Source: a virus
Taxonomy: Duplodnaviria > Caudoviricetes
Strand: one strand, 5' to 3'
IMG/VR virus record: IMGVR_UViG_3300025782_000056
Span: 1 to 26,853 of that record
DNA: 26,853 nucleotides
The notes beneath the pieces are model-generated. The model worked only from the letters and a program-made list of their open reading frames with translations, made no database searches and was not told where the DNA came from. The translations under genes and the position numbers were made by a program. This document shows, in pieces, positions 8,978 to 26,117 of this stretch. The number at the start of each line of letters is the position of its first letter. Position 1 is the first letter of the stretch.

Positions 8978-9604
8978 ATGACTCCAGTAACAACAGGTAG
9001 CCCATATATATTCGTTTACAATAATGCATTAGACAGCGCAAACTGCGACTTAATCAATGCATGGGTCGCTGGCTCAGACATGGCAACCAATACAGCTTAT
9101 GCTACTGCAAATGCTTGGGAACATGCTACTGCCACTGCTCAAGTTTCAGATTCTAATGTTAGACACTTAATTACTGAGTATAGAAACAATCTAGTCAACG
9201 TTGCCAATACTGCATTCGCAAACTCATTTTCTCCAGAATCTTCTATGTTACTATATTGGAGAAATAACAATTCAATGTATCTACATTCAGATGCAATTGA
9301 TATTGCTAATATTGCACCTGAACATGCGAATACTGTTCCAGTAAATTCATCAATCTTCATGAGAGAAGTTTCGTCAATAACATTCACAAATGATGGTTTC
9401 ACTGGTGGTGAAGTTTCAATTCAAGTTGCTCCACGTGGTGCTAATGTACAGACATATACAGTGACCCCAACAAAGGGAACAGTTGTCATGTTTGACAGCC
9501 ATTGTATGTTCTCTGTGAATACTGTGACTTCTGGCGCAAACAGCATGATCACTCTACCAATCTACTTCACAACAAACGCAAACGCTGTTGAAATTATAAC
9601 ATAA
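8978..9604 (+). CDS. 2OG-Fe(II) oxygenase-fold protein, probably catalytically degenerate
   Basis: Aligns with the next gene (YWR...HSD...TFTNDGFTGGE...PTKGTVV) but lacks the distal His and the 2OG-binding Arg; N/A/T/S-rich. Confidence 0.7.
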   Translation: MTPVTTGSPYIFVYNNALDSANCDLINAWVAGSDMATNTAYATANAWEHATATAQVSDSNVRHLITEYRNNLVNVANTAFANSFSPESSMLLYWRNNNSMYLHSDAIDIANIAPEHANTVPVNSSIFMREVSSITFTNDGFTGGEVSIQVAPRGANVQTYTVTPTKGTVVMFDSHCMFSVNTVTSGANSMITLPIYFTTNANAVEIIT

Positions 9605-9614
9605 GAAAATAATA

Positions 9615-10268
9615 ATGATACAGGTGGATACTGGAATTGATTTAATTTATCGATTCGATCAAATTCTAGATGATAGTTTATGCGATGAGATAGTAGAACA
9701 CATTAAAACAAAAACTGATCTACTATCTTATCATAATGATCCTGCTAATGTAGATAAAGATCCATTCTCATACGACTATCAATTAGAAAAGTATCCTGAA
9801 GATCTTAAAAAAAGAATTGCAGAATACAGAGACAATCTAGCCTCCGTTGTTTCAGAGTGTTACAAAGAAACAAACTATCCAGAATCTTTAAATACTGTTT
9901 ACTGGAGAAAAGGCACATCTATGGACTGGCATCCAGATATTCTTAGTCAAGAGATGATGTCAGAAGAACAAATAAAAGCCCATAAATCAAATTCGTCAAT
10001 ACTGACTGGAAATGTAACAGCTATAACGTATTTGAATGACGATTATGTCGGCGGTGAAACTATCATTGCTGAAGGAAAATGGAAATCTCCTTTTATCTCA
10101 AATACAAAAACATATTTGAGCAAACCAAAAAAGGGTTCAGTTGTTTTATATTTCTCAGGCTGCTTTCATCGTGTTAATGAGATACAAGAAGGCGATAGGT
10201 TCACAATATCAATGTTCTTCACTAAAGAATTTGAATATTCTTATGAAGGAAGAAAGTTAACATTTTAA
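9615..10268 (+). CDS. 2OG-Fe(II) oxygenase (prolyl-4-hydroxylase-like)
   Basis: WHPD, YLNDDYVGGE, PKKGSVV, FHRV, GDRFT: complete HxD...H...R. Confidence 0.85.
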   Translation: MIQVDTGIDLIYRFDQILDDSLCDEIVEHIKTKTDLLSYHNDPANVDKDPFSYDYQLEKYPEDLKKRIAEYRDNLASVVSECYKETNYPESLNTVYWRKGTSMDWHPDILSQEMMSEEQIKAHKSNSSILTGNVTAITYLNDDYVGGETIIAEGKWKSPFISNTKTYLSKPKKGSVVLYFSGCFHRVNEIQEGDRFTISMFFTKEFEYSYEGRKLTF

Positions 10269-13018: not shown

Positions 13019-13561
13019 ATGAGCGATTTAGAAGGTAAGAAAGTCCCACAGAATGTGGTGTTTAAGACTCGTGTTCGTGATGAGTCGATTGGTGGTCCAA
13101 ACCCATACCGTTGGGAAGATGTAAAGAGCAAAGACTTGTTTAAGCGCAAGAGAGTTGTATTATTCTCACTTCCAGGTGCTTTTACTCCAACATGCTCAAC
13201 TTATCAACTACCAGATTATGAGAAGTTGTTCCCAGAGTTTCAAGCATGCGGTATTAAAGATATCTACTGCTTGTCTGTTAATGATGCTTTCGTTATGAAT
13301 GCATGGGCAAAAAGCCAAAATCTTGAGAATGTTAAAGTTATTCCAGACGGCAGCGGAGTTTTCACTAAGAAGATGAAGATGCTTGTTAAGAAAGATAATC
13401 TTGGCTTTGGTGCACGCTCATGGCGTTATGCTGCTGTTGTTAAGAATGGCGTTATCGAAAAGATGTTCGTTGAGCCAGGATTTGAAGACAACTGCGCAAC
13501 TGACCCATACGGTGAGTCAAGCCCACAAACTGTTCTTGAATGGTTGAAGAAGAATAGTTAA
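13019..13561 (+). CDS. Peroxiredoxin (Prx5/type II)
   Basis: FSLPGAFTPTCS active site, SVNDAFVMNAW, RSWRYA. Confidence 0.93.
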   Translation: MSDLEGKKVPQNVVFKTRVRDESIGGPNPYRWEDVKSKDLFKRKRVVLFSLPGAFTPTCSTYQLPDYEKLFPEFQACGIKDIYCLSVNDAFVMNAWAKSQNLENVKVIPDGSGVFTKKMKMLVKKDNLGFGARSWRYAAVVKNGVIEKMFVEPGFEDNCATDPYGESSPQTVLEWLKKNS

Positions 13562-13764: not shown

Positions 13765-13767
13765 CTG

Positions 13768-13827
13768 CAAGTCATTGATTTGATTAGATTTATTTGAATT
13801 GCCTTTTCCCGACTGAAATAGTATAAT
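13768..13827 (+). promoter_or_regulatory. Early sigma70 promoter with upstream IHF-consensus site
   Basis: CAAGTCATTGATT(13768-13780; YAANNNNTTGATW), TTGCCT(13799-13804), 17 bp, TATAAT(13822-13827). Confidence 0.75.
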
Positions 13828-14623: not shown

Positions 14624-14652
14624 TTTACTTTTACAATTGAGTGGAGTATAAT
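14624..14652 (+). promoter_or_regulatory. Early sigma70 promoter, probably producing a leaderless mRNA
   Basis: TTTACT(14624-14629), 17 bp, TATAAT(14647-14652); ATG follows after 6 nt. Confidence 0.65.
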
Positions 14653-14658
14653 AGTCTT

Positions 14659-14997
14659 ATGATCGTTGTAAAAGAAATTACAGTTTGGAATATGGAGGGT
14701 AAACAGCCCAACCATGTCTATTTGCTTGACGGCGACAGAGTTGTCGCCTATCAGAAATGGGGCGAGGGTGAGCCGATATACTCTAAACACCGAGCACGTA
14801 TAGACAAACGATATCGCAAATTCGTTGAGATTAAGAATCATCCGTTTAAGATTGAAGAAACCAAAAGCAATCTGATTAAGATTACAGGCAGCAAAGGCAA
14901 CACATATTTCGTTGACCCTGATAAGAAAACCTGTACTTGCTCTGGCTTTCAGTTTAGACGTAGGTGTAAACATGTTGAACAGGCATTAGCATCGTGA
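14659..14997 (+). CDS. SWIM zinc-finger protein
   Basis: GSKGNTYFV...TCTCSGFQFRRRCKHV (CxC...CxH). Confidence 0.8.
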   Translation: MIVVKEITVWNMEGKQPNHVYLLDGDRVVAYQKWGEGEPIYSKHRARIDKRYRKFVEIKNHPFKIEETKSNLIKITGSKGNTYFVDPDKKTCTCSGFQFRRRCKHVEQALAS

Positions 14998-15333: not shown

Positions 15334-15493
15334 GGAGCAAGTAGCACAGTTACATGCTAAGATGATGGAGATCTTTGGTGAGAACATGGCAAATCCTGAT
15401 CATGAACCAATTAGATTTGATTATCAGATTAAATTTGCAATGTATAAACTTGGATGGAGAATAGAGAAAAATGTTCATAAACCCCAACCCTGA
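15326..15493 (+). CDS. Hypothetical protein (55 aa), not in ORF track
   Basis: MTEEQVAQLHAKMMEIFGENMANPDHEPIRFDYQIK... fills the gap between neighbours. Confidence 0.6.
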   Translation: MTEEQVAQLHAKMMEIFGENMANPDHEPIRFDYQIKFAMYKLGWRIEKNVHKPQP

Positions 15494-15689
15494 TTGTCAA
15501 GATGAGTGTTCCTTCGCAGAAGGTGTGAAATCGAAAACAATGGTGAATTATCCTCCACGTTATGATAAACATGGGAATAATACTAATCCTGATCGTAACT
15601 GGACATCTTACAGCGTGTCTTGTCATAAATGCAATACGACTTGGAACGTAAAAACAAATGGCGATTTTACTGAGATCAATAAAGTATGA
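15471..15689 (+). CDS. Small putative zinc-ribbon protein
   Basis: CQDEC...CHKC; GGAG RBS. Confidence 0.6.
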   Translation: MFINPNPDCQDECSFAEGVKSKTMVNYPPRYDKHGNNTNPDRNWTSYSVSCHKCNTTWNVKTNGDFTEINKV

Positions 15690-15934
15690 ACGAACGAATT
15701 AAACAACTTGCTGAACAGGCTAGACAAGAATTTTTAGAACTACCAACTGGATATACACCTGAGCAAGTTGGAATGTATCCACAGTTGATGCAAAAGTTCG
15801 CCGAGTTGATTGTTCAGGAATGTGCTCAAGCGTTTGAAGCAGAAGTAGATACTTGGAAAGAAATGGATCCATATCAAGGCAGTATGAAACGCAAGGGCAC
15901 ACAAGCGATTAAACAACATTTCGGAGTTGAATAA
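15686..15934 (+). CDS. MNERI-family mini-protein, copy 1
   Basis: MNERIKQLAEQA...KFAELIVQEC...HFGVE. Confidence 0.8.
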   Translation: MNERIKQLAEQARQEFLELPTGYTPEQVGMYPQLMQKFAELIVQECAQAFEAEVDTWKEMDPYQGSMKRKGTQAIKQHFGVE

Positions 15935-16155
15935 TGAACGAACGAATCGCAAAACTATATGACCAAGCAACCATTTTAGAAGGCAATGGCGACTACGTGG
16001 CAGGTGAGTTGGATCCTGTAAAGTTTGCCGAGTTGATTGTTAGGGAGTGTGCTAATCAATGTGACTTATTGTTGGATCATAAAATAAGTTCAGAATGGGC
16101 AAGAGGGACACATGATTGCTCAAAAGCGATTAAGAAACATTTCGGAGTTGAATGA
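15934..16155 (+). CDS. MNERI-family mini-protein, copy 2
   Basis: MNERI...KFAELIVREC...KHFGVE. Confidence 0.8.
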   Translation: MNERIAKLYDQATILEGNGDYVAGELDPVKFAELIVRECANQCDLLLDHKISSEWARGTHDCSKAIKKHFGVE

Positions 16156-16367
16156 TGACCAATCAAGAACTTGTTGATACACTGAACACAGCCAGTGAAA
16201 GTGCTGGTGGCAATATTGCCCTGTCCATGCTGTTGAAAATTGCCGCAGACCGTATTCTAGAATTGGATGACCGATGTGATGAATTGGCCGCAGACAAAGG
16301 TACTTATTTTAGGTTATATGAAGCATTGTGTATTAAAGTTGAATCAGACAAGAGGGCAAAAGAATGA
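16152..16367 (+). CDS. Hypothetical protein interleaved in the array
   Basis: Starts directly after block C and ends overlapping block A; AADRILEL helical motif. Confidence 0.65.
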   Translation: MMTNQELVDTLNTASESAGGNIALSMLLKIAADRILELDDRCDELAADKGTYFRLYEALCIKVESDKRAKE

Positions 16368-16624
16368 ACGAACGAATTAAACAACTTGCTGAACAGGCTG
16401 GATCGACCCATAAACAAAATCTTGGTGTCTATCAATTCTTTACAGACGAATTAGAAAAGTTCGCCCAGTTGATTGTGAAAGAATGTATCAACGAGATTGC
16501 CTACATTGGAAAAGCAAATGAAGTATTTGGTGATAGAACCGATAGGGGTGGTTTGAATCATATACTTTGGACTACTGAAACAGCGATTGAGAAGATTAAA
16601 GAACATTTCGGAGTTGAAGAATGA
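16364..16624 (+). CDS. MNERI-family mini-protein, copy 3
   Basis: MNERIKQLAEQAG...KFAQLIVKEC...HFGVEE. Confidence 0.8.
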   Translation: MNERIKQLAEQAGSTHKQNLGVYQFFTDELEKFAQLIVKECINEIAYIGKANEVFGDRTDRGGLNHILWTTETAIEKIKEHFGVEE

Positions 16625-16710
16625 AAGAAAAATTTGGTCCATATTTTCTAGATATTTTAATAACAATATGTATTGTTTATGATATTGTATATTTTACTTT
16701 TTGGAGTTGA
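16621..16710 (+). CDS. Small hydrophobic peptide (29 aa) in the array
   Basis: MKEKFGPYFLDILITICIVYDIVYFTFWS, using the GGAG of block C as RBS. Confidence 0.5.
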   Translation: MKEKFGPYFLDILITICIVYDIVYFTFWS

Positions 16711-16713
16711 ACA

Positions 16714-16962
16714 ATGAACGAACGAATTAGAGAACTTGCTAAAAAGGCTGGATTCAGTACTGAATTGTCAGAAGCAATGGCAACACGTCATAATACAACA
16801 TCGGCATTTGAAAAGTTCGCCGAGTTGATTGTGAAGGAATGTATCAGTCGAATTGAAGGATGTGCAGTTGAAACAAGCCCTGATGATTTTGTAAAAGGAT
16901 ACAACAAAGGTGTTAGCAAAGTATCCAGTCAGGTTAAACAGTATTTCGGAGTTGAAAAATGA
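16714..16962 (+). CDS. MNERI-family mini-protein, copy 4
   Basis: MNERIRELAKKAG...KFAELIVKEC...YFGVEK. Confidence 0.8.
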   Translation: MNERIRELAKKAGFSTELSEAMATRHNTTSAFEKFAELIVKECISRIEGCAVETSPDDFVKGYNKGVSKVSSQVKQYFGVEK

Positions 16963-17225
16963 GTTTGACTATCCATCATTTTAATCGTAACGGCGAAAAA
17001 TTAATTGATTGTAAGAATGTTTACGAAACTGATGAAAAATTCTTTCAGGATAACAATATTAAAGTTTCTGTGGAAGAACTAAGTGGGGACATCATTGTAT
17101 ATGGCTGTCCCTACTCTGATGAATCTGAAGAATCAGAAGTTATTGTGTTTGCTGGAAACAAGCCTTTTGAAGATACATTGAGTGAACTTGTAATATTGTG
17201 CCGAAAACATTTTGGAGTTAAATGA
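16959..17225 (+). CDS. Hypothetical protein ending in block C (KHFGVK)
   Basis: Unrelated body flanked on both sides by block C. Confidence 0.65.
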   Translation: MSLTIHHFNRNGEKLIDCKNVYETDEKFFQDNNIKVSVEELSGDIIVYGCPYSDESEESEVIVFAGNKPFEDTLSELVILCRKHFGVK

Positions 17226-17431
17226 TGAACGAACGAATCAAGGAATTGTATATTGAGACATCAAATGAAACCGCTGACGGTAAAGAGTGGGCGATTGGCG
17301 GCATGAAAAATGCTGAGAAATTCGCCGAGTTGATTGTGAAAGAATGTGCTTATATTATGGACAAGGATGCTGATCATCCATTTGTTAGCCGTGGTAGTAT
17401 TTTGAAGCATCATTTCGGAGTTGAAGAATGA
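17222..17431 (+). CDS. MNERI-family mini-protein, copy 5
   Basis: MNERIKEL...KFAELIVKEC...HHFGVEE. Confidence 0.8.
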   Translation: MMNERIKELYIETSNETADGKEWAIGGMKNAEKFAELIVKECAYIMDKDADHPFVSRGSILKHHFGVEE

Positions 17432-17520
17432 TGTGGTATTACCTTAATATCCTATTATATTGTGTTTTTTTATTATGTGGCTTTGCGTTATTATGGGCTA
17501 CTTGGAGAAATCAGAAATGA
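17428..17520 (+). CDS. Small membrane peptide (30 aa) in the array
   Basis: MMWYYLNILLYCVFLLCGFALLWATWRNQK, ATGA-coupled at both ends. Confidence 0.55.
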   Translation: MMWYYLNILLYCVFLLCGFALLWATWRNQK

Positions 17521-17723
17521 ACGAACGAATTAAACAACTTGCTGAACAGGCTGGATCAACCCATAAACAAAATCTCGGAGTATATCAATTTTTTACAGAT
17601 GAATTGGAAAAGTTCGCCGAGTTGATTGTGGCAGAATGCATCGGTGTTGCAGTAGATAACGGATGCGGCGATTTTGTTGACATTGAACATTTATTATTAA
17701 AACATTTCGGAGTTGAAGAATGA
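17517..17723 (+). CDS. MNERI-family mini-protein, copy 6
   Basis: Start placed at ATG 17517 (block A); N-terminal 34 aa identical to copy 3. Confidence 0.8.
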   Translation: MNERIKQLAEQAGSTHKQNLGVYQFFTDELEKFAELIVAECIGVAVDNGCGDFVDIEHLLLKHFGVEE

Positions 17724-17794
17724 ACGTATTATTAATTGTTATCGCTGTTGGAATCATTGGTGCTCTTGTTTCAACCAAATTACCAAAGAAGTAA
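17720..17794 (+). CDS. Small membrane peptide (24 aa)
   Basis: MNVLLIVIAVGIIGALVSTKLPKK directly after the last block C. Confidence 0.5.
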   Translation: MNVLLIVIAVGIIGALVSTKLPKK

Positions 17795-17795
17795 T

Positions 17796-18029
17796 ATGGC
17801 AAGAAAGAAACAACAAGCTGGTAAAATCTTAGCGAATGAATATCTAGAAGGATTGAAAGCTGCTATGAATACAGACACAGATTATGGATACAATCCTTAT
17901 CTAAAGGATCGTCCGCACTCTGAGGATTTTCAGAAAGCAGAAAGTTGGAGATCTGGATTCGCTGATGGTCTAGCCAAAAAATCGAAAAGGAAAAAGAGAA
18001 ATGGAAAGGCCAACACCCGAAGTTGTTAG
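17796..18029 (+). CDS. Hypothetical protein
   Basis: ATG 17796; YLEG...NPY...WRSGF pattern loosely reminiscent of RMF-like phage proteins. Confidence 0.6.
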   Translation: MARKKQQAGKILANEYLEGLKAAMNTDTDYGYNPYLKDRPHSEDFQKAESWRSGFADGLAKKSKRKKRNGKANTRSC

Positions 18030-18270
18030 AATTGGAAGACTTGAGAAGAAGATTCGCAAGTTGAAACAACAACTGGCAGCAACAAAAGAGCAGAATGCTT
18101 TCTTCAATGAGGTTTTACGATACTATCCTTATTCTATGAGAACGTATGAAGAAAAGATGCGGCAGCAATCAGATAGAGAAGAATTGAAAGAACTGAGAGT
18201 AAGAGTTAAAGAACAAAGTGCATTGATCAAGAAATTGACTGATGAGAATGAGAAAAAGGAAAATGTATGA
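18001..18270 (+). CDS. Hypothetical coiled-coil protein
   Basis: 89 aa heptad-rich ORF. Confidence 0.65.
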   Translation: MERPTPEVVRIGRLEKKIRKLKQQLAATKEQNAFFNEVLRYYPYSMRTYEEKMRQQSDREELKELRVRVKEQSALIKKLTDENEKKENV

Positions 18271-18449
18271 GATTACATGAGTTTTTTCAAAAAATTAATT
18301 TGTTTGAGATGTATCGAAAACATAAGAGAGATCGCGAATCGAAAAAACTAATCAATGAGGTTGTTCATCAGTTGTCTAAACAGGCGTCTCCAAATCGTTT
18401 GAGTTTTGAATATATGTATGTTAATAAAGATAACAATGAAAAATCTTAA
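18267..18449 (+). CDS. Hypothetical protein
   Basis: ATGA-coupled, AAGGA RBS. Confidence 0.55.
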   Translation: MRLHEFFQKINLFEMYRKHKRDRESKKLINEVVHQLSKQASPNRLSFEYMYVNKDNNEKS

Positions 18450-18543
18450 TCCTCTCGCACAGTTCTTTGCTGCAATAACTATCACATTTGGTGGCAGTTA
18501 TTTGATTGCATTCATTCTCAAAATTATAAAGAATTTATTATGA
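18436..18543 (+). CDS. Small membrane peptide (35 aa)
   Basis: MKNLNPLAQFFAAITITFGGSYLIAFILKIIKNLL; stop overlaps the next ATG. Confidence 0.5.
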   Translation: MKNLNPLAQFFAAITITFGGSYLIAFILKIIKNLL

Positions 18544-18926
18544 TAGAATGTATGATCATTGGCGACAGTATTGCTGTCGGTGTTGCTAATTATAGACATG
18601 AGTGTGAAGTATATGCTAAAGTTGGCATCACATCTCATAACTGGAATGTAACAAATAAGAATGTGAACATTGAAGCTGAGACTGTAATCATAAGTCTCGG
18701 CACCAATGATCGTTTGATGAATACTGAGAAAGAATTATTGGCAATCAGAGACAGAACAAAGGCAACTAAGATTGTGTGGATAATTCCAGCCAAGAACAAT
18801 AAAGAAATTGTACAAGGTGTCGCGTTTGAAAGTCATGACAAATACATTACAATTGATAAGACAGCAAATGATGGCACACACCCAACAATGGCAGAATATA
18901 AAAGAATAGCAGAGAATACAAAATGA
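18540..18926 (+). CDS. SGNH/GDSL hydrolase (minimal)
   Basis: IIGDSIA (Ser), KVG, SLGTND, DGTHPT (DxxH). Confidence 0.8.
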   Translation: MIECMIIGDSIAVGVANYRHECEVYAKVGITSHNWNVTNKNVNIEAETVIISLGTNDRLMNTEKELLAIRDRTKATKIVWIIPAKNNKEIVQGVAFESHDKYITIDKTANDGTHPTMAEYKRIAENTK

Positions 18927-19510
18927 GAAATTTTTGCGTGGATGTAGAGACGCTCGGGACAGAATCAACTGCTGTTATTCTGTCGGCGGCACTTATTCCA
19001 TTTGAATTAAATGAAAAGCCAGTCTACGAAGAACTATTAGAACGTGCTATCTTTGTTAAATTTGATGTTGAACAACAATTAAGAGAATTACATAGAACTG
19101 CTGAACAGTCAACTATGGAATGGTGGCAGAAACAATGTGATCTCGTAAAAGATAAAAGTTTCAAAAAAGATAAGAAACGAGATGTTGATGCTGCGACAGG
19201 TCTCACCTATTTGAAGAATAAGGCAGAGTTGTCGTTAATAGCAAAAGAGAATAAAGATGTAATCTTTTGGTCTCGTGGTTCTTTAGATCAGGTCACAATT
19301 GACAGTTTGTCTAAACAAGTACATAATGAATTGGTCATCCCATTTAATAACTGGCGCGATGTAAGGACAGCTGTTGATCTGTTGTGCGAAGGTGCATCGG
19401 GTGGTTATTGTGCTGTTACAGGTTTTAATAGGGATATTGTATTAAAACATGACCCTGTGGCAGACTGTGCATATGATATTATGATGCTCTTGGCTAATAA
19501 TAGGGTCTAG
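18923..19510 (+). CDS. dexA: DEDDh 3'-5' exonuclease, T4 DexA-like
   Basis: VDVETLG, WSRGSLD, RDVRT, HDPVADC. Confidence 0.75.
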   Translation: MRNFCVDVETLGTESTAVILSAALIPFELNEKPVYEELLERAIFVKFDVEQQLRELHRTAEQSTMEWWQKQCDLVKDKSFKKDKKRDVDAATGLTYLKNKAELSLIAKENKDVIFWSRGSLDQVTIDSLSKQVHNELVIPFNNWRDVRTAVDLLCEGASGGYCAVTGFNRDIVLKHDPVADCAYDIMMLLANNRV

Positions 19511-19555
19511 AATAAGACCGCTGTAGGGCGATTGCAGGACGTCCAATAAGATCTG

Positions 19556-19615
19556 TAAGTCATTGATTCCATTATGTTTTTCATGTTTGCCTTTTTAACA
19601 AGAGTGGTATATAAT
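19556..19615 (+). promoter_or_regulatory. Early sigma70 promoter with upstream IHF-consensus site
   Basis: TAAGTCATTGATT(19556-19568), TTGCCT(19587-19592), 17 bp, TATAAT(19610-19615). Confidence 0.75.
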
Positions 19616-19641
19616 AGTCTTATCGAATGGAGGGATTATAT

Positions 19642-23147: not shown

Positions 23148-23762
23148 ATGGATGGATTATTTGAAGTCGTACGAAAAGCAGTACACCCACAAGCAATAGA
23201 ACTGCTAAAGAATTCCCTCTTAATAGAAAAAGACGTGTTCTATCACAATAAACGTGTAGACCCGAACAACGTCGGCGCATTCTCTGAAGCTGACAATGTA
23301 ACAATGGGTGACCACTTTAACAAATACTCAGCAATGGTCGGTGAAGGTATGATGGTCACTCTGTTGCCATTAGTACAAAGTATCACAGGCAAACGTCTGT
23401 ATCCCACCTACTCCTTTGTAAGATTTTACTATAAAGATTCAGTCTTACATCGTCACCGTGATCGTCCATCGTGCGAATACTCAATGACAATGTGCGTTGA
23501 GTCTGATCCTGAGCCATGGCCAATCTTCGTAGATGGTGTTGGTGTTTCTTTGAATCCAGGTGATCTGGTTGTATACAAGGGCTGTGACGCATGGCACTGG
23601 CGTGAACCATACAAGGGTAATCGTACGATACAAATCTTTATGCATTATGTTGACGCCAATGGACCATACAGCAACTTCCATTATGATCGAAGAGATCTGC
23701 TTGGGCTTAGTGGTGGTGGCTGCATGCGTCCTGATGAATATCTAGAATATGAAACAAGATGA
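23148..23762 (+). CDS. 2OG-Fe(II) oxygenase
   Basis: LYPTYSFVRFY, LHRHRDRPSCEYS (HxD), PGDLVVYKG, HWRE, QIFMHY. Confidence 0.8.
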   Translation: MDGLFEVVRKAVHPQAIELLKNSLLIEKDVFYHNKRVDPNNVGAFSEADNVTMGDHFNKYSAMVGEGMMVTLLPLVQSITGKRLYPTYSFVRFYYKDSVLHRHRDRPSCEYSMTMCVESDPEPWPIFVDGVGVSLNPGDLVVYKGCDAWHWREPYKGNRTIQIFMHYVDANGPYSNFHYDRRDLLGLSGGGCMRPDEYLEYETR

Positions 23763-25807: not shown

Positions 25808-26055
25808 GATTATTATTGAAAAGACAAATGAGCTATATCAAGTCCTATGAGGTAAAGACTGTAGTTCCTTATGAAGGTGATGAAAGAATATTCTTTGAAA
25901 ATGATTCAAAATCAGCACTTGAAAGATTCATAATTGAATTATTGAGGAACGAAATCGTGAGGAACGAAATCGTGAGGAACGAAATCGTAAACATGTGCAT
26001 ACTGAATATTGAGGAACGAAATCGTGAGGAACGAAATCGTAAACATAAATGTTGA
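25804..26055 (+). CDS. Hypothetical protein running into DNA repeats
   Basis: RLLLKR...SALERFIIEL; C-terminus encoded by the 15-bp repeats. Confidence 0.45.
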   Translation: MRLLLKRQMSYIKSYEVKTVVPYEGDERIFFENDSKSALERFIIELLRNEIVRNEIVRNEIVNMCILNIEERNREERNRKHKC

Positions 26056-26068
26056 GGAACGAAATCGT
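25944..26068. repeat. Six exact 15-bp direct repeats GAGGAACGAAATCGT (3+2+1), iteron-like
   Basis: Copies start at 25944, 25959, 25974, 26011, 26026 and 26054; each cluster is preceded by TT and followed by AAACAT. Confidence 0.95.
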
Positions 26069-26117
26069 AAACATGTGCATGCATATATAATGTACGGTAG
26101 GTCAACCCTGTAATAGC

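Follow-up and report, generated by a model that had tools for sequence, protein, structure and literature searches.

A mini-gene array of large T4-like freshwater phages whose variable segments are probably exchanged at three short coding blocks

Targeted diversity or swappable small-gene arrays are made by integron cassettes and by diversity-generating retroelements. The proteins of the T-even internal-protein locus share an N-terminal capsid-targeting sequence and undergo head packaging and injection. Some T-even internal proteins act in counter-defence (PMC4122927). In gp38, the tail-fibre adhesin of T-even phages, conserved glycine-rich coding motifs lie between hypervariable segments, exchanges often occur in or near the motifs and the conserved parts form the core (PMC3157838). 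For the PeSL cassettes of T4-type phages, repeated conserved sequences have been described in variable genome regions, at which small accessory genes are exchanged and for which a dedicated recombinase has not been identified; the PeSL is an intergenic element of promoter plus stem-loop that moves whole ORFs (PMC2839356; PMC4122927).

The stretch of DNA analysed here, called the window, is a virus record of 26,853 bases with T4-like genes, including a RuvC-like resolvase, an exonuclease and a peroxiredoxin (Pfam/PHROGs scan of the window: 28 of 170 listed ORFs). The peroxiredoxin gene is located at 13019-13561, and the ORF at 928-1467 is presumably superoxide dismutase-like. Several ORFs at 8978-10268 and 23148-23762 resemble by eye what we take to be 2OG-Fe(II) oxygenases. 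An 83-aa ORF that precedes a NUMOD3 homing-endonuclease-like gene contains about seven imperfect copies of a tandem 15-nt repeat (25923-26074). An earlier note on this DNA had reported six genes with the common layout A-V1-B-V2-C, in which A, B and C are constant and V1 and V2 vary, and the six genes were indeed found on the plus strand, from 15686 to 17723:

15686..15934, plus strand: family gene 1, 82 aa; its V2 is paired with different V1s in L001, L002 and L003
15934..16155, plus strand: family gene 2, 73 aa; its V2 is common to L004 (100%), L074 and L107
16364..16624, plus strand: family gene 3, 86 aa; its V2 is in common with L135 (98%)
16714..16962, plus strand: family gene 4, 82 aa
17225..17431, plus strand: family gene 5, 68 aa
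17517..17723, plus strand: family gene 6, 68 aa; A, B and C are helical in its AlphaFold2 model
15686..15721, plus strand (example): block A, gene start, predicted helix 1 and apparent exchange point; also at 15934, 16364, 16714, 17225 and 17517
15794..15822, plus strand (example): block B, predicted helix 2 and apparent V1/V2 exchange point; also at 16021, 16457, 16813, 17318 and 17610
15917..15936, plus strand (example): block C, end of predicted helix 3, GGAG ribosome-site-like word, stop/start overlap and apparent exchange point; also at 16138, 16604, 16697, 16942, 17208, 17411 and 17703

The start common to all six genes is ATGAACGAACGAAT. The first 36 nt, previously noted as identical in copies 1, 3 and 6, agree at 36/36 positions among these three and at 23-32 of 36 in the other copy pairs. 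Block B consists of 20 constant nt, 4 free nt and GAATG, with small departures in three copies (CAG for GAG in copy 3, TTT in copy 2 and AAA in copy 5). Block C occurs eight times in the window rather than six; the extra two copies (16697 and 17208) end non-family genes, and the one at 16697 is read in another frame (T-F-W-S-stop). The array repeats are the second to sixth largest repeat families within the window, and therefore do not reflect chance. The V1 of gene 2 is also present in a close relative (L356), joined there to another V2, and the V1 of gene 3 is common to gene 6 and to L006, L072, L137 and L147. The V1-V2 combinations of copies 1, 3 and 6 were recovered with 0 differences on single contigs of another run (X2), which cover 15692-15932, 16375-16622 and 17528-19000 of the window.

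Four small non-family genes lie between the family copies and one more follows copy 6, and all of them belong to the system. These genes and the array borders are as follows:

14624..14652, plus strand: sigma-70-like promoter match upstream of the small-gene run; consensus match only, with similar DNA near 19587
15471..15689, plus strand: small gene just upstream of the array; ATGA overlap with block A; precedes a gene-2-type V1 in L352
16152..16367, plus strand: cargo gene, 71 aa, between C and A; sits after gene 6 V2-C in L353 and the run X20
16621..16710, plus strand: cargo ORF, 29 aa, hydrophobic; its end is C-like DNA (16697-16711) in another reading frame
16959..17225, plus strand: cargo gene, 88 aa; terminates in block C (HFGVK)
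17428..17520, plus strand: cargo ORF, 30 aa, hydrophobic; found at 100% identity in L356, where its V2 and V1 neighbours are different
17720..17794, plus strand: small ORF, 24 aa, hydrophobic; takes its start from the last C block and marks the array's right border; two copies in L353

ATGA-type overlaps join nearly all of the array genes, and block C provides the GGAG word ahead of the next start. Searching viral contigs with the 88-aa cargo gene yielded no relative. Many cargo ORFs are single hydrophobic stretches of 24-40 aa and are candidate membrane peptides (16621-16710, 17428-17520 and 17720-17794 in the window; others in L069, L250 and L007). The promoter-like match at 14624-14652 upstream of the array would fit early expression. 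Intergenic repeats of 33-43 nt with -35/-10 matches occur at 13765-13827, 14624-14660 and 19553-19623 of the window and are possibly PeSL-like early promoters. A second modular small-gene family, with the common end WVGLTDEEI...EAKLKEKN and different starts, adjoins the array (L356:125-397; L352:27-164; L023 and L053).

The independent assortment of V1 and V2, which the earlier note had put forward as a test, was assessed in genes parsed with a pattern that required all three blocks. This pattern kept 596 of the 767 B matches in 419 sources, corresponding to 369 distinct genes, and dropped partial or diverged members. V segments at least 80% identical were counted as shared, and a partner V below 60% as unrelated. 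Assortment proved to be almost free: 101 of the 108 pairs with the same V1 have an unrelated V2 and 82 of the 90 pairs with the same V2 have an unrelated V1, seven pairs sharing both, and congruence of the paralog type was not seen. The first set of 282 genes had given discordance in 80/85 pairs for V1 and 45/50 for V2. By comparison, a control built from 1494 pairs of other ORFs of these loci, each ORF being divided into two 75-nt pieces, showed discordance in 12/262 and 10/251 cases; this control includes shadow frames and is BLAST-preselected. The 369 genes contain 279 V1 and 285 V2 alleles in 362 combinations. Nearly every allele seen more than once has several partners (51/52 for V1 and 53/58 for V2), and the Chao1 estimates are 1084 V1 and 858 V2 alleles. 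The V-sharing pairs lack independence, and a single cycle is all that the allele graph contains, which makes it weak as a four-gamete test; so few cycles are expected when about 1000 alleles per slot are sparsely sampled.

Identity falls from about 0.9 to about 0.3 at the block edges. Common upstream DNA was found in 2/76 pairs of V1 sharers and common downstream DNA in 0/44 pairs of V2 sharers, and on this comparison A and C appear to be exchange points too, besides B. Among the close V-sharing locus pairs, 20/25 have no other 300-bp stretch in common; these are variable regions, so the count is not proof of distant phages. Only 2/142 and 1/116 pairs share alleles within one locus, indicating that the alleles spread mostly between genomes. 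Diverged, longer members (L043:1620; L283, on the minus strand) share V alleles with standard members, which suggests an older pool that supplies the V pieces. Some genes have a doubled B block (P0121, P0133, P0140 and P0244). The use of V1 alleles in the V2 slot was rejected, as the 17 matches were all short and chance-like by eye and contained no whole allele.

The arrays of close relatives are assembled from partly the same and partly different pieces. L351 is identical to the window and gives no independent evidence. In L356, whose right flank is 95% identical over 5 kb, the V1 of copy 2 is joined to a new V2, followed by the 30-aa cargo gene at 100% identity and then by an A block with a new V1 and V2; the array of L352 agrees with this order. 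L353-L355, with flanks of 96-98% identity, have another array, in which the V2 of copy 6 is followed by the 71-aa cargo gene. One 825-nt contig of an RNA run (X20) reads A(2), a new V1, B-V2(6)-C, the cargo gene at 16152, A-V1(1)-B, a new V2, C and the right flank, with one ambiguous joint at which 36 letters fit either side. Three of the X20 joints are also found in X21, and the joint from V2(6)-C to the cargo gene at 16152 is present in both L353 and X20. The earlier note had named a fixed order as a mark of ordinary paralogs, yet close relatives whose flanks are 95-98% identical do not have their genes in the same order. All identity edges inside the array (20/20) fall in the blocks, which make up 34% of it, with block limits that were set after seeing the data and local alignments that run on through blocks; the edges outside the array (15463, 17802, 18022 and 18169) are not at blocks and were excluded from this tally. 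Many more joints at blocks were seen in other runs, but most of these joints may belong to other phages of the same samples. RNA runs contain parts of the array of a relative at a depth of about 5, which is not proof of transcription. All evidence of exchange is from assemblies, recombination being read from contigs. About 300 bp to the right of the array (window 18018-18466; joints at 18017-18327 and 18169-18467) is absent or replaced in L352, L354, L355 and L356, not at family blocks.

Silent sites vary far less within the blocks than codon usage predicts, in agreement with the previous claim that the same GC-containing codons are kept there, codons that are rare elsewhere. The test used 168 genes from loci found by protein patterns, those found by a DNA pattern being kept apart. 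The preferred codons are GCC (139/167), GAG (116/134), TTG (148/166) and AAG (136/155) in block B, CGA (132/153) and AAC (139/163) in block A and GGA (157/168) in block C, compared with fractions of 0.19-0.33 for the same codons in V segments (0.19-0.29 when AAG and AAC are set aside). The block B consensus holds in loci differing in GC content, and its exact 20-mer is estimated to occur in about 1600 IMG/VR stretches. The further claim that the blocks are constrained or homogenised at the DNA level stood in part: the codon uniformity supports it, but the blocks are not frozen, and the conservation of block C and its GGA has a plain second reason, because the GGAG ribosome site and the ATGA overlap lie there. 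Block silent-site differences of 0.32-0.49 between unrelated genes are about the same as those within one V allele (pS 0.30-0.38), which fits continual homogenisation. The dN/dS in the blocks is 0.02-0.32, indicating constraint at the protein level. No repeated promoter or terminator match was found at the blocks.

The V alleles are under purifying selection, with dN/dS values of 0.12 for 51 V1 alleles and 0.17 for 58 V2 alleles (one pair per allele), and the pieces thus matter as protein. The members are acidic, with a median net charge of -4. The V pieces are 9-50 aa long and rich in Asp, Glu and aromatic residues; the hydrophobic pattern next to the blocks is kept and the frames stay open. 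In alignment A2, the Cys of block B is invariant and the His of block C nearly so, which makes them candidates for binding a metal such as zinc in an oligomer. AlphaFold2 predicted three helices on A, B and C for gene 6 (pLDDT 87), and for a second member (pLDDT 82) a lower-confidence loop at V1 and a V2 that lengthens the B and C helices. Of the helical scaffold with two variable loops that the earlier note had proposed, the helices on the blocks are retained in these predictions, whereas V2 is predicted to extend two helices instead of forming a simple loop. No PDB fold match was obtained at E 0.001; the best VIA Z was 4.6, with none of at least 5 among 48,161 chains, which implies neither a new fold nor a function.

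The family is unnamed and is found in large T4-like freshwater phages. It comprises about 10,500 representatives at 50% identity clustering, and 7977 of the 7998 scored candidates at 90% clustering gave profile matches. A total of 303 members were found in 76 IMG/VR loci and the window, with 1-11 per locus. Each of five large carrier records (292-355 kb) contains 3-12 matches, mostly in one cluster, and gp23 and a RecA/UvsX-like gene are present in 5/5 of these genomes. Pfam and PHROGs contain no family for the six window genes, and the scans of 113 and 150 members yielded scattered weak matches only. The cultured-phage collection gave two weak matches (E 0.2 and 0.7) and no usable isolate, and the ESM Atlas gave unnamed viral clusters only, with no usable named match; the BFVD matches are uncharacterised Caudovirales proteins. 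In prokaryote genomes the family was matched on 25 MAG contigs, which come from scattered taxa and probably represent binned phage DNA. Family genes are present on four short contigs that belong to a single Rhodoferax record (L364, L365, L370 and L371), a weak hint of either a Comamonadaceae host or binned phage DNA. The motif words KFAELIV, HFGVEE and MNERIK are absent from the literature searched, and no description of the family was found by topic in titles and abstract starts, with supplements and subscription papers outside the scope; the searched passages of PMC12373910 hold no relevant text.

Sharp edges at the blocks could also be made by a dedicated site-specific recombinase, integron- or Tn916-like, that recognises the blocks and uses the four free bases of B as its overlap region. 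These four bases track neither side even in pairs of at least 97% identity (the same in 6/16 pairs for V1 and 5/12 for V2; background 167/3000), and the word GAGTTGA is found in both B and C, in different frames, with all 12 plus-strand copies in the window falling inside the array. We nevertheless consider such an enzyme unlikely. No tyrosine integrase, the only type searched, was found in the five large carrier genomes (0/5), three of which are less than 90% complete, the window's own genome being a fragment. The edges wander within the blocks, and three different blocks serve. None of the six block pairings was below 7% of random synonymous versions with RNA and DNA parameters, and an A:B or A:C hairpin noticed by eye was rejected (A:B at 22%). 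GAGTTGA was also rejected as a genome-wide Chi-like word, with 11 copies vs 18 expected and 40 vs 34. The V pieces, being selected and diverse, might instead be decoy copies of those essential phage or host proteins which defence systems sense, a reading to which we give slightly less weight. When the V peptides of 369 genes were compared with 1598 long ORFs, among them those of two almost complete carrier genomes, 4 matches were obtained at E <0.001 vs 1 reversed and 1 shuffled, and 20 at E <0.01 vs 10 reversed and 20 shuffled, the two strong matches being other family members. Mimicry of core proteins was thus not supported above controls, with limited sensitivity for short motifs, and the scattered weak matches of the PHROGs/Pfam scans also speak against it.

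It is very improbable that the blocks themselves spread, as selfish or passive cassette joints, while the proteins do little. This reading would account for the coupled ORF not parsed as family that follows 249 of the 369 genes (one cluster of 17 of these being family missed by the parser) and for the C DNA kept in another frame at 16697, but not for the low dN/dS of the V segments (0.12-0.17), the conserved hydrophobic pattern and the open frames. Assembly chimeras at the 20-36 nt repeats have to be considered as well, since all data are assemblies and contigs often break at blocks. Against them, the same arrays occur in separate assemblies (L353, L354 and L355; L352 and L356), X2 keeps the window combinations unchanged, L353 and X20 have a joint in common, and silent sites differ between copies of a shared V allele (pS 0.30-0.38), so that this origin of the mosaics is hardly credible. 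The least probable explanation is that of ordinary old tandem paralogs with conserved motifs and a fixed order, which agrees with the protein constraint on the blocks but is contradicted by the different arrays found in relatives of 95-98% identity and by the rarity of allele sharing inside one locus.

We propose, at a probability of roughly 0.7, that the array forms a mix-and-match library whose V1, V2 and small neighbouring genes are exchanged at three short coding blocks, likely by general phage recombination, giving acidic mini-proteins of a predicted three-helix scaffold that likely bind varying host targets early in infection. Crossovers would occur at the 20-36 nt of homology, during co-infection or inside a replicating genome, by UvsX-type or other short-homology recombination; T4 recombines at homologies of 6-10 bp (PMC9391042). 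Because each block holds a fixed place in fold and frame, every A-A, B-B or C-C crossover would give an in-frame, ribosome-coupled product, and a like-for-like crossover would keep frame, fold and ribosome coupling and thus yield viable recombinants. Block C combines stop, ribosome site and start, so foreign small genes could be swapped too. Blocks matching the common sequence would join more exchanges, by which silent sites would be kept alike across lineages, and out-of-register crossovers would give products with two B blocks. The free-base pattern of B, which follows neither the V1 nor the V2 side, is not predicted by a simple crossover in the longer arm.

Selection may have shaped each V allele into a surface that binds a protein of the host or of a rival phage, for instance a component of a defence system; we judge the odds of this to be somewhat less than even. 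More tentatively still, the arrays might constitute an antibody-like, community-wide binder library of lytic phages, with one helical scaffold and two slots of about 1000 selected alleles, reshuffled across lineages at coding handles selected for compatibility, each allele being aimed at a host defence or regulatory protein; we regard this wider picture as doubtful. Among the unnamed small-protein families of freshwater phages this is one of the largest, and the proposed exchange would explain its diversity by part swapping at coding handles, not by point mutation. The system would unite two principles so far known apart from each other in T4-like phages, the shuffling of segments in one adhesin and of cassettes at intergenic repeats, and provide a case in which selection for compatible recombination between phage lineages can be measured. 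If V alleles do bind host proteins, the family would be a large natural collection in which to look for new defence systems and counter-defences as well as for a small binder scaffold.

Compared with integrons, no attC-like hairpin was found here, and no tyrosine integrase in the five large carriers. Diversity-generating retroelements act by adenine-specific mutation, whereas segments are replaced here with a change in length and the V alleles are unrelated. Like the T-even internal-protein locus, the array consists of small variable genes with a common coding start; the internal proteins have one shared block and unrelated bodies, whereas three blocks and a common predicted fold are found here. 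As in gp38, variable segments are exchanged at conserved coding motifs. However, gp38 is a single virion gene, an essential one, that draws on a limited set of segments, some of them often linked (PMC3157838), whereas the array family has multiple copies of 60-95 aa, is non-structural, has an estimated 1000 or so alleles per slot in near-free assortment, and its handles also move whole genes. Glycine-rich motifs, a fibre-attachment domain and a tail-fibre locus were not found, the neighbours being small genes of no named function. As with PeSLs, flanked cargo ORFs are exchanged at a repeated element between close relatives and expression signals are part of the handle; in contrast to PeSLs, the handles A, B and C are protein-coding, have no promoter or hairpin, and cut the genes into half-gene modules. 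The array thus works like gp38 motif shuffling together with PeSL cassettes, yet fails the defining features of both, and what is new here is known shuffling principles acting on an unnamed family of unusual scale.
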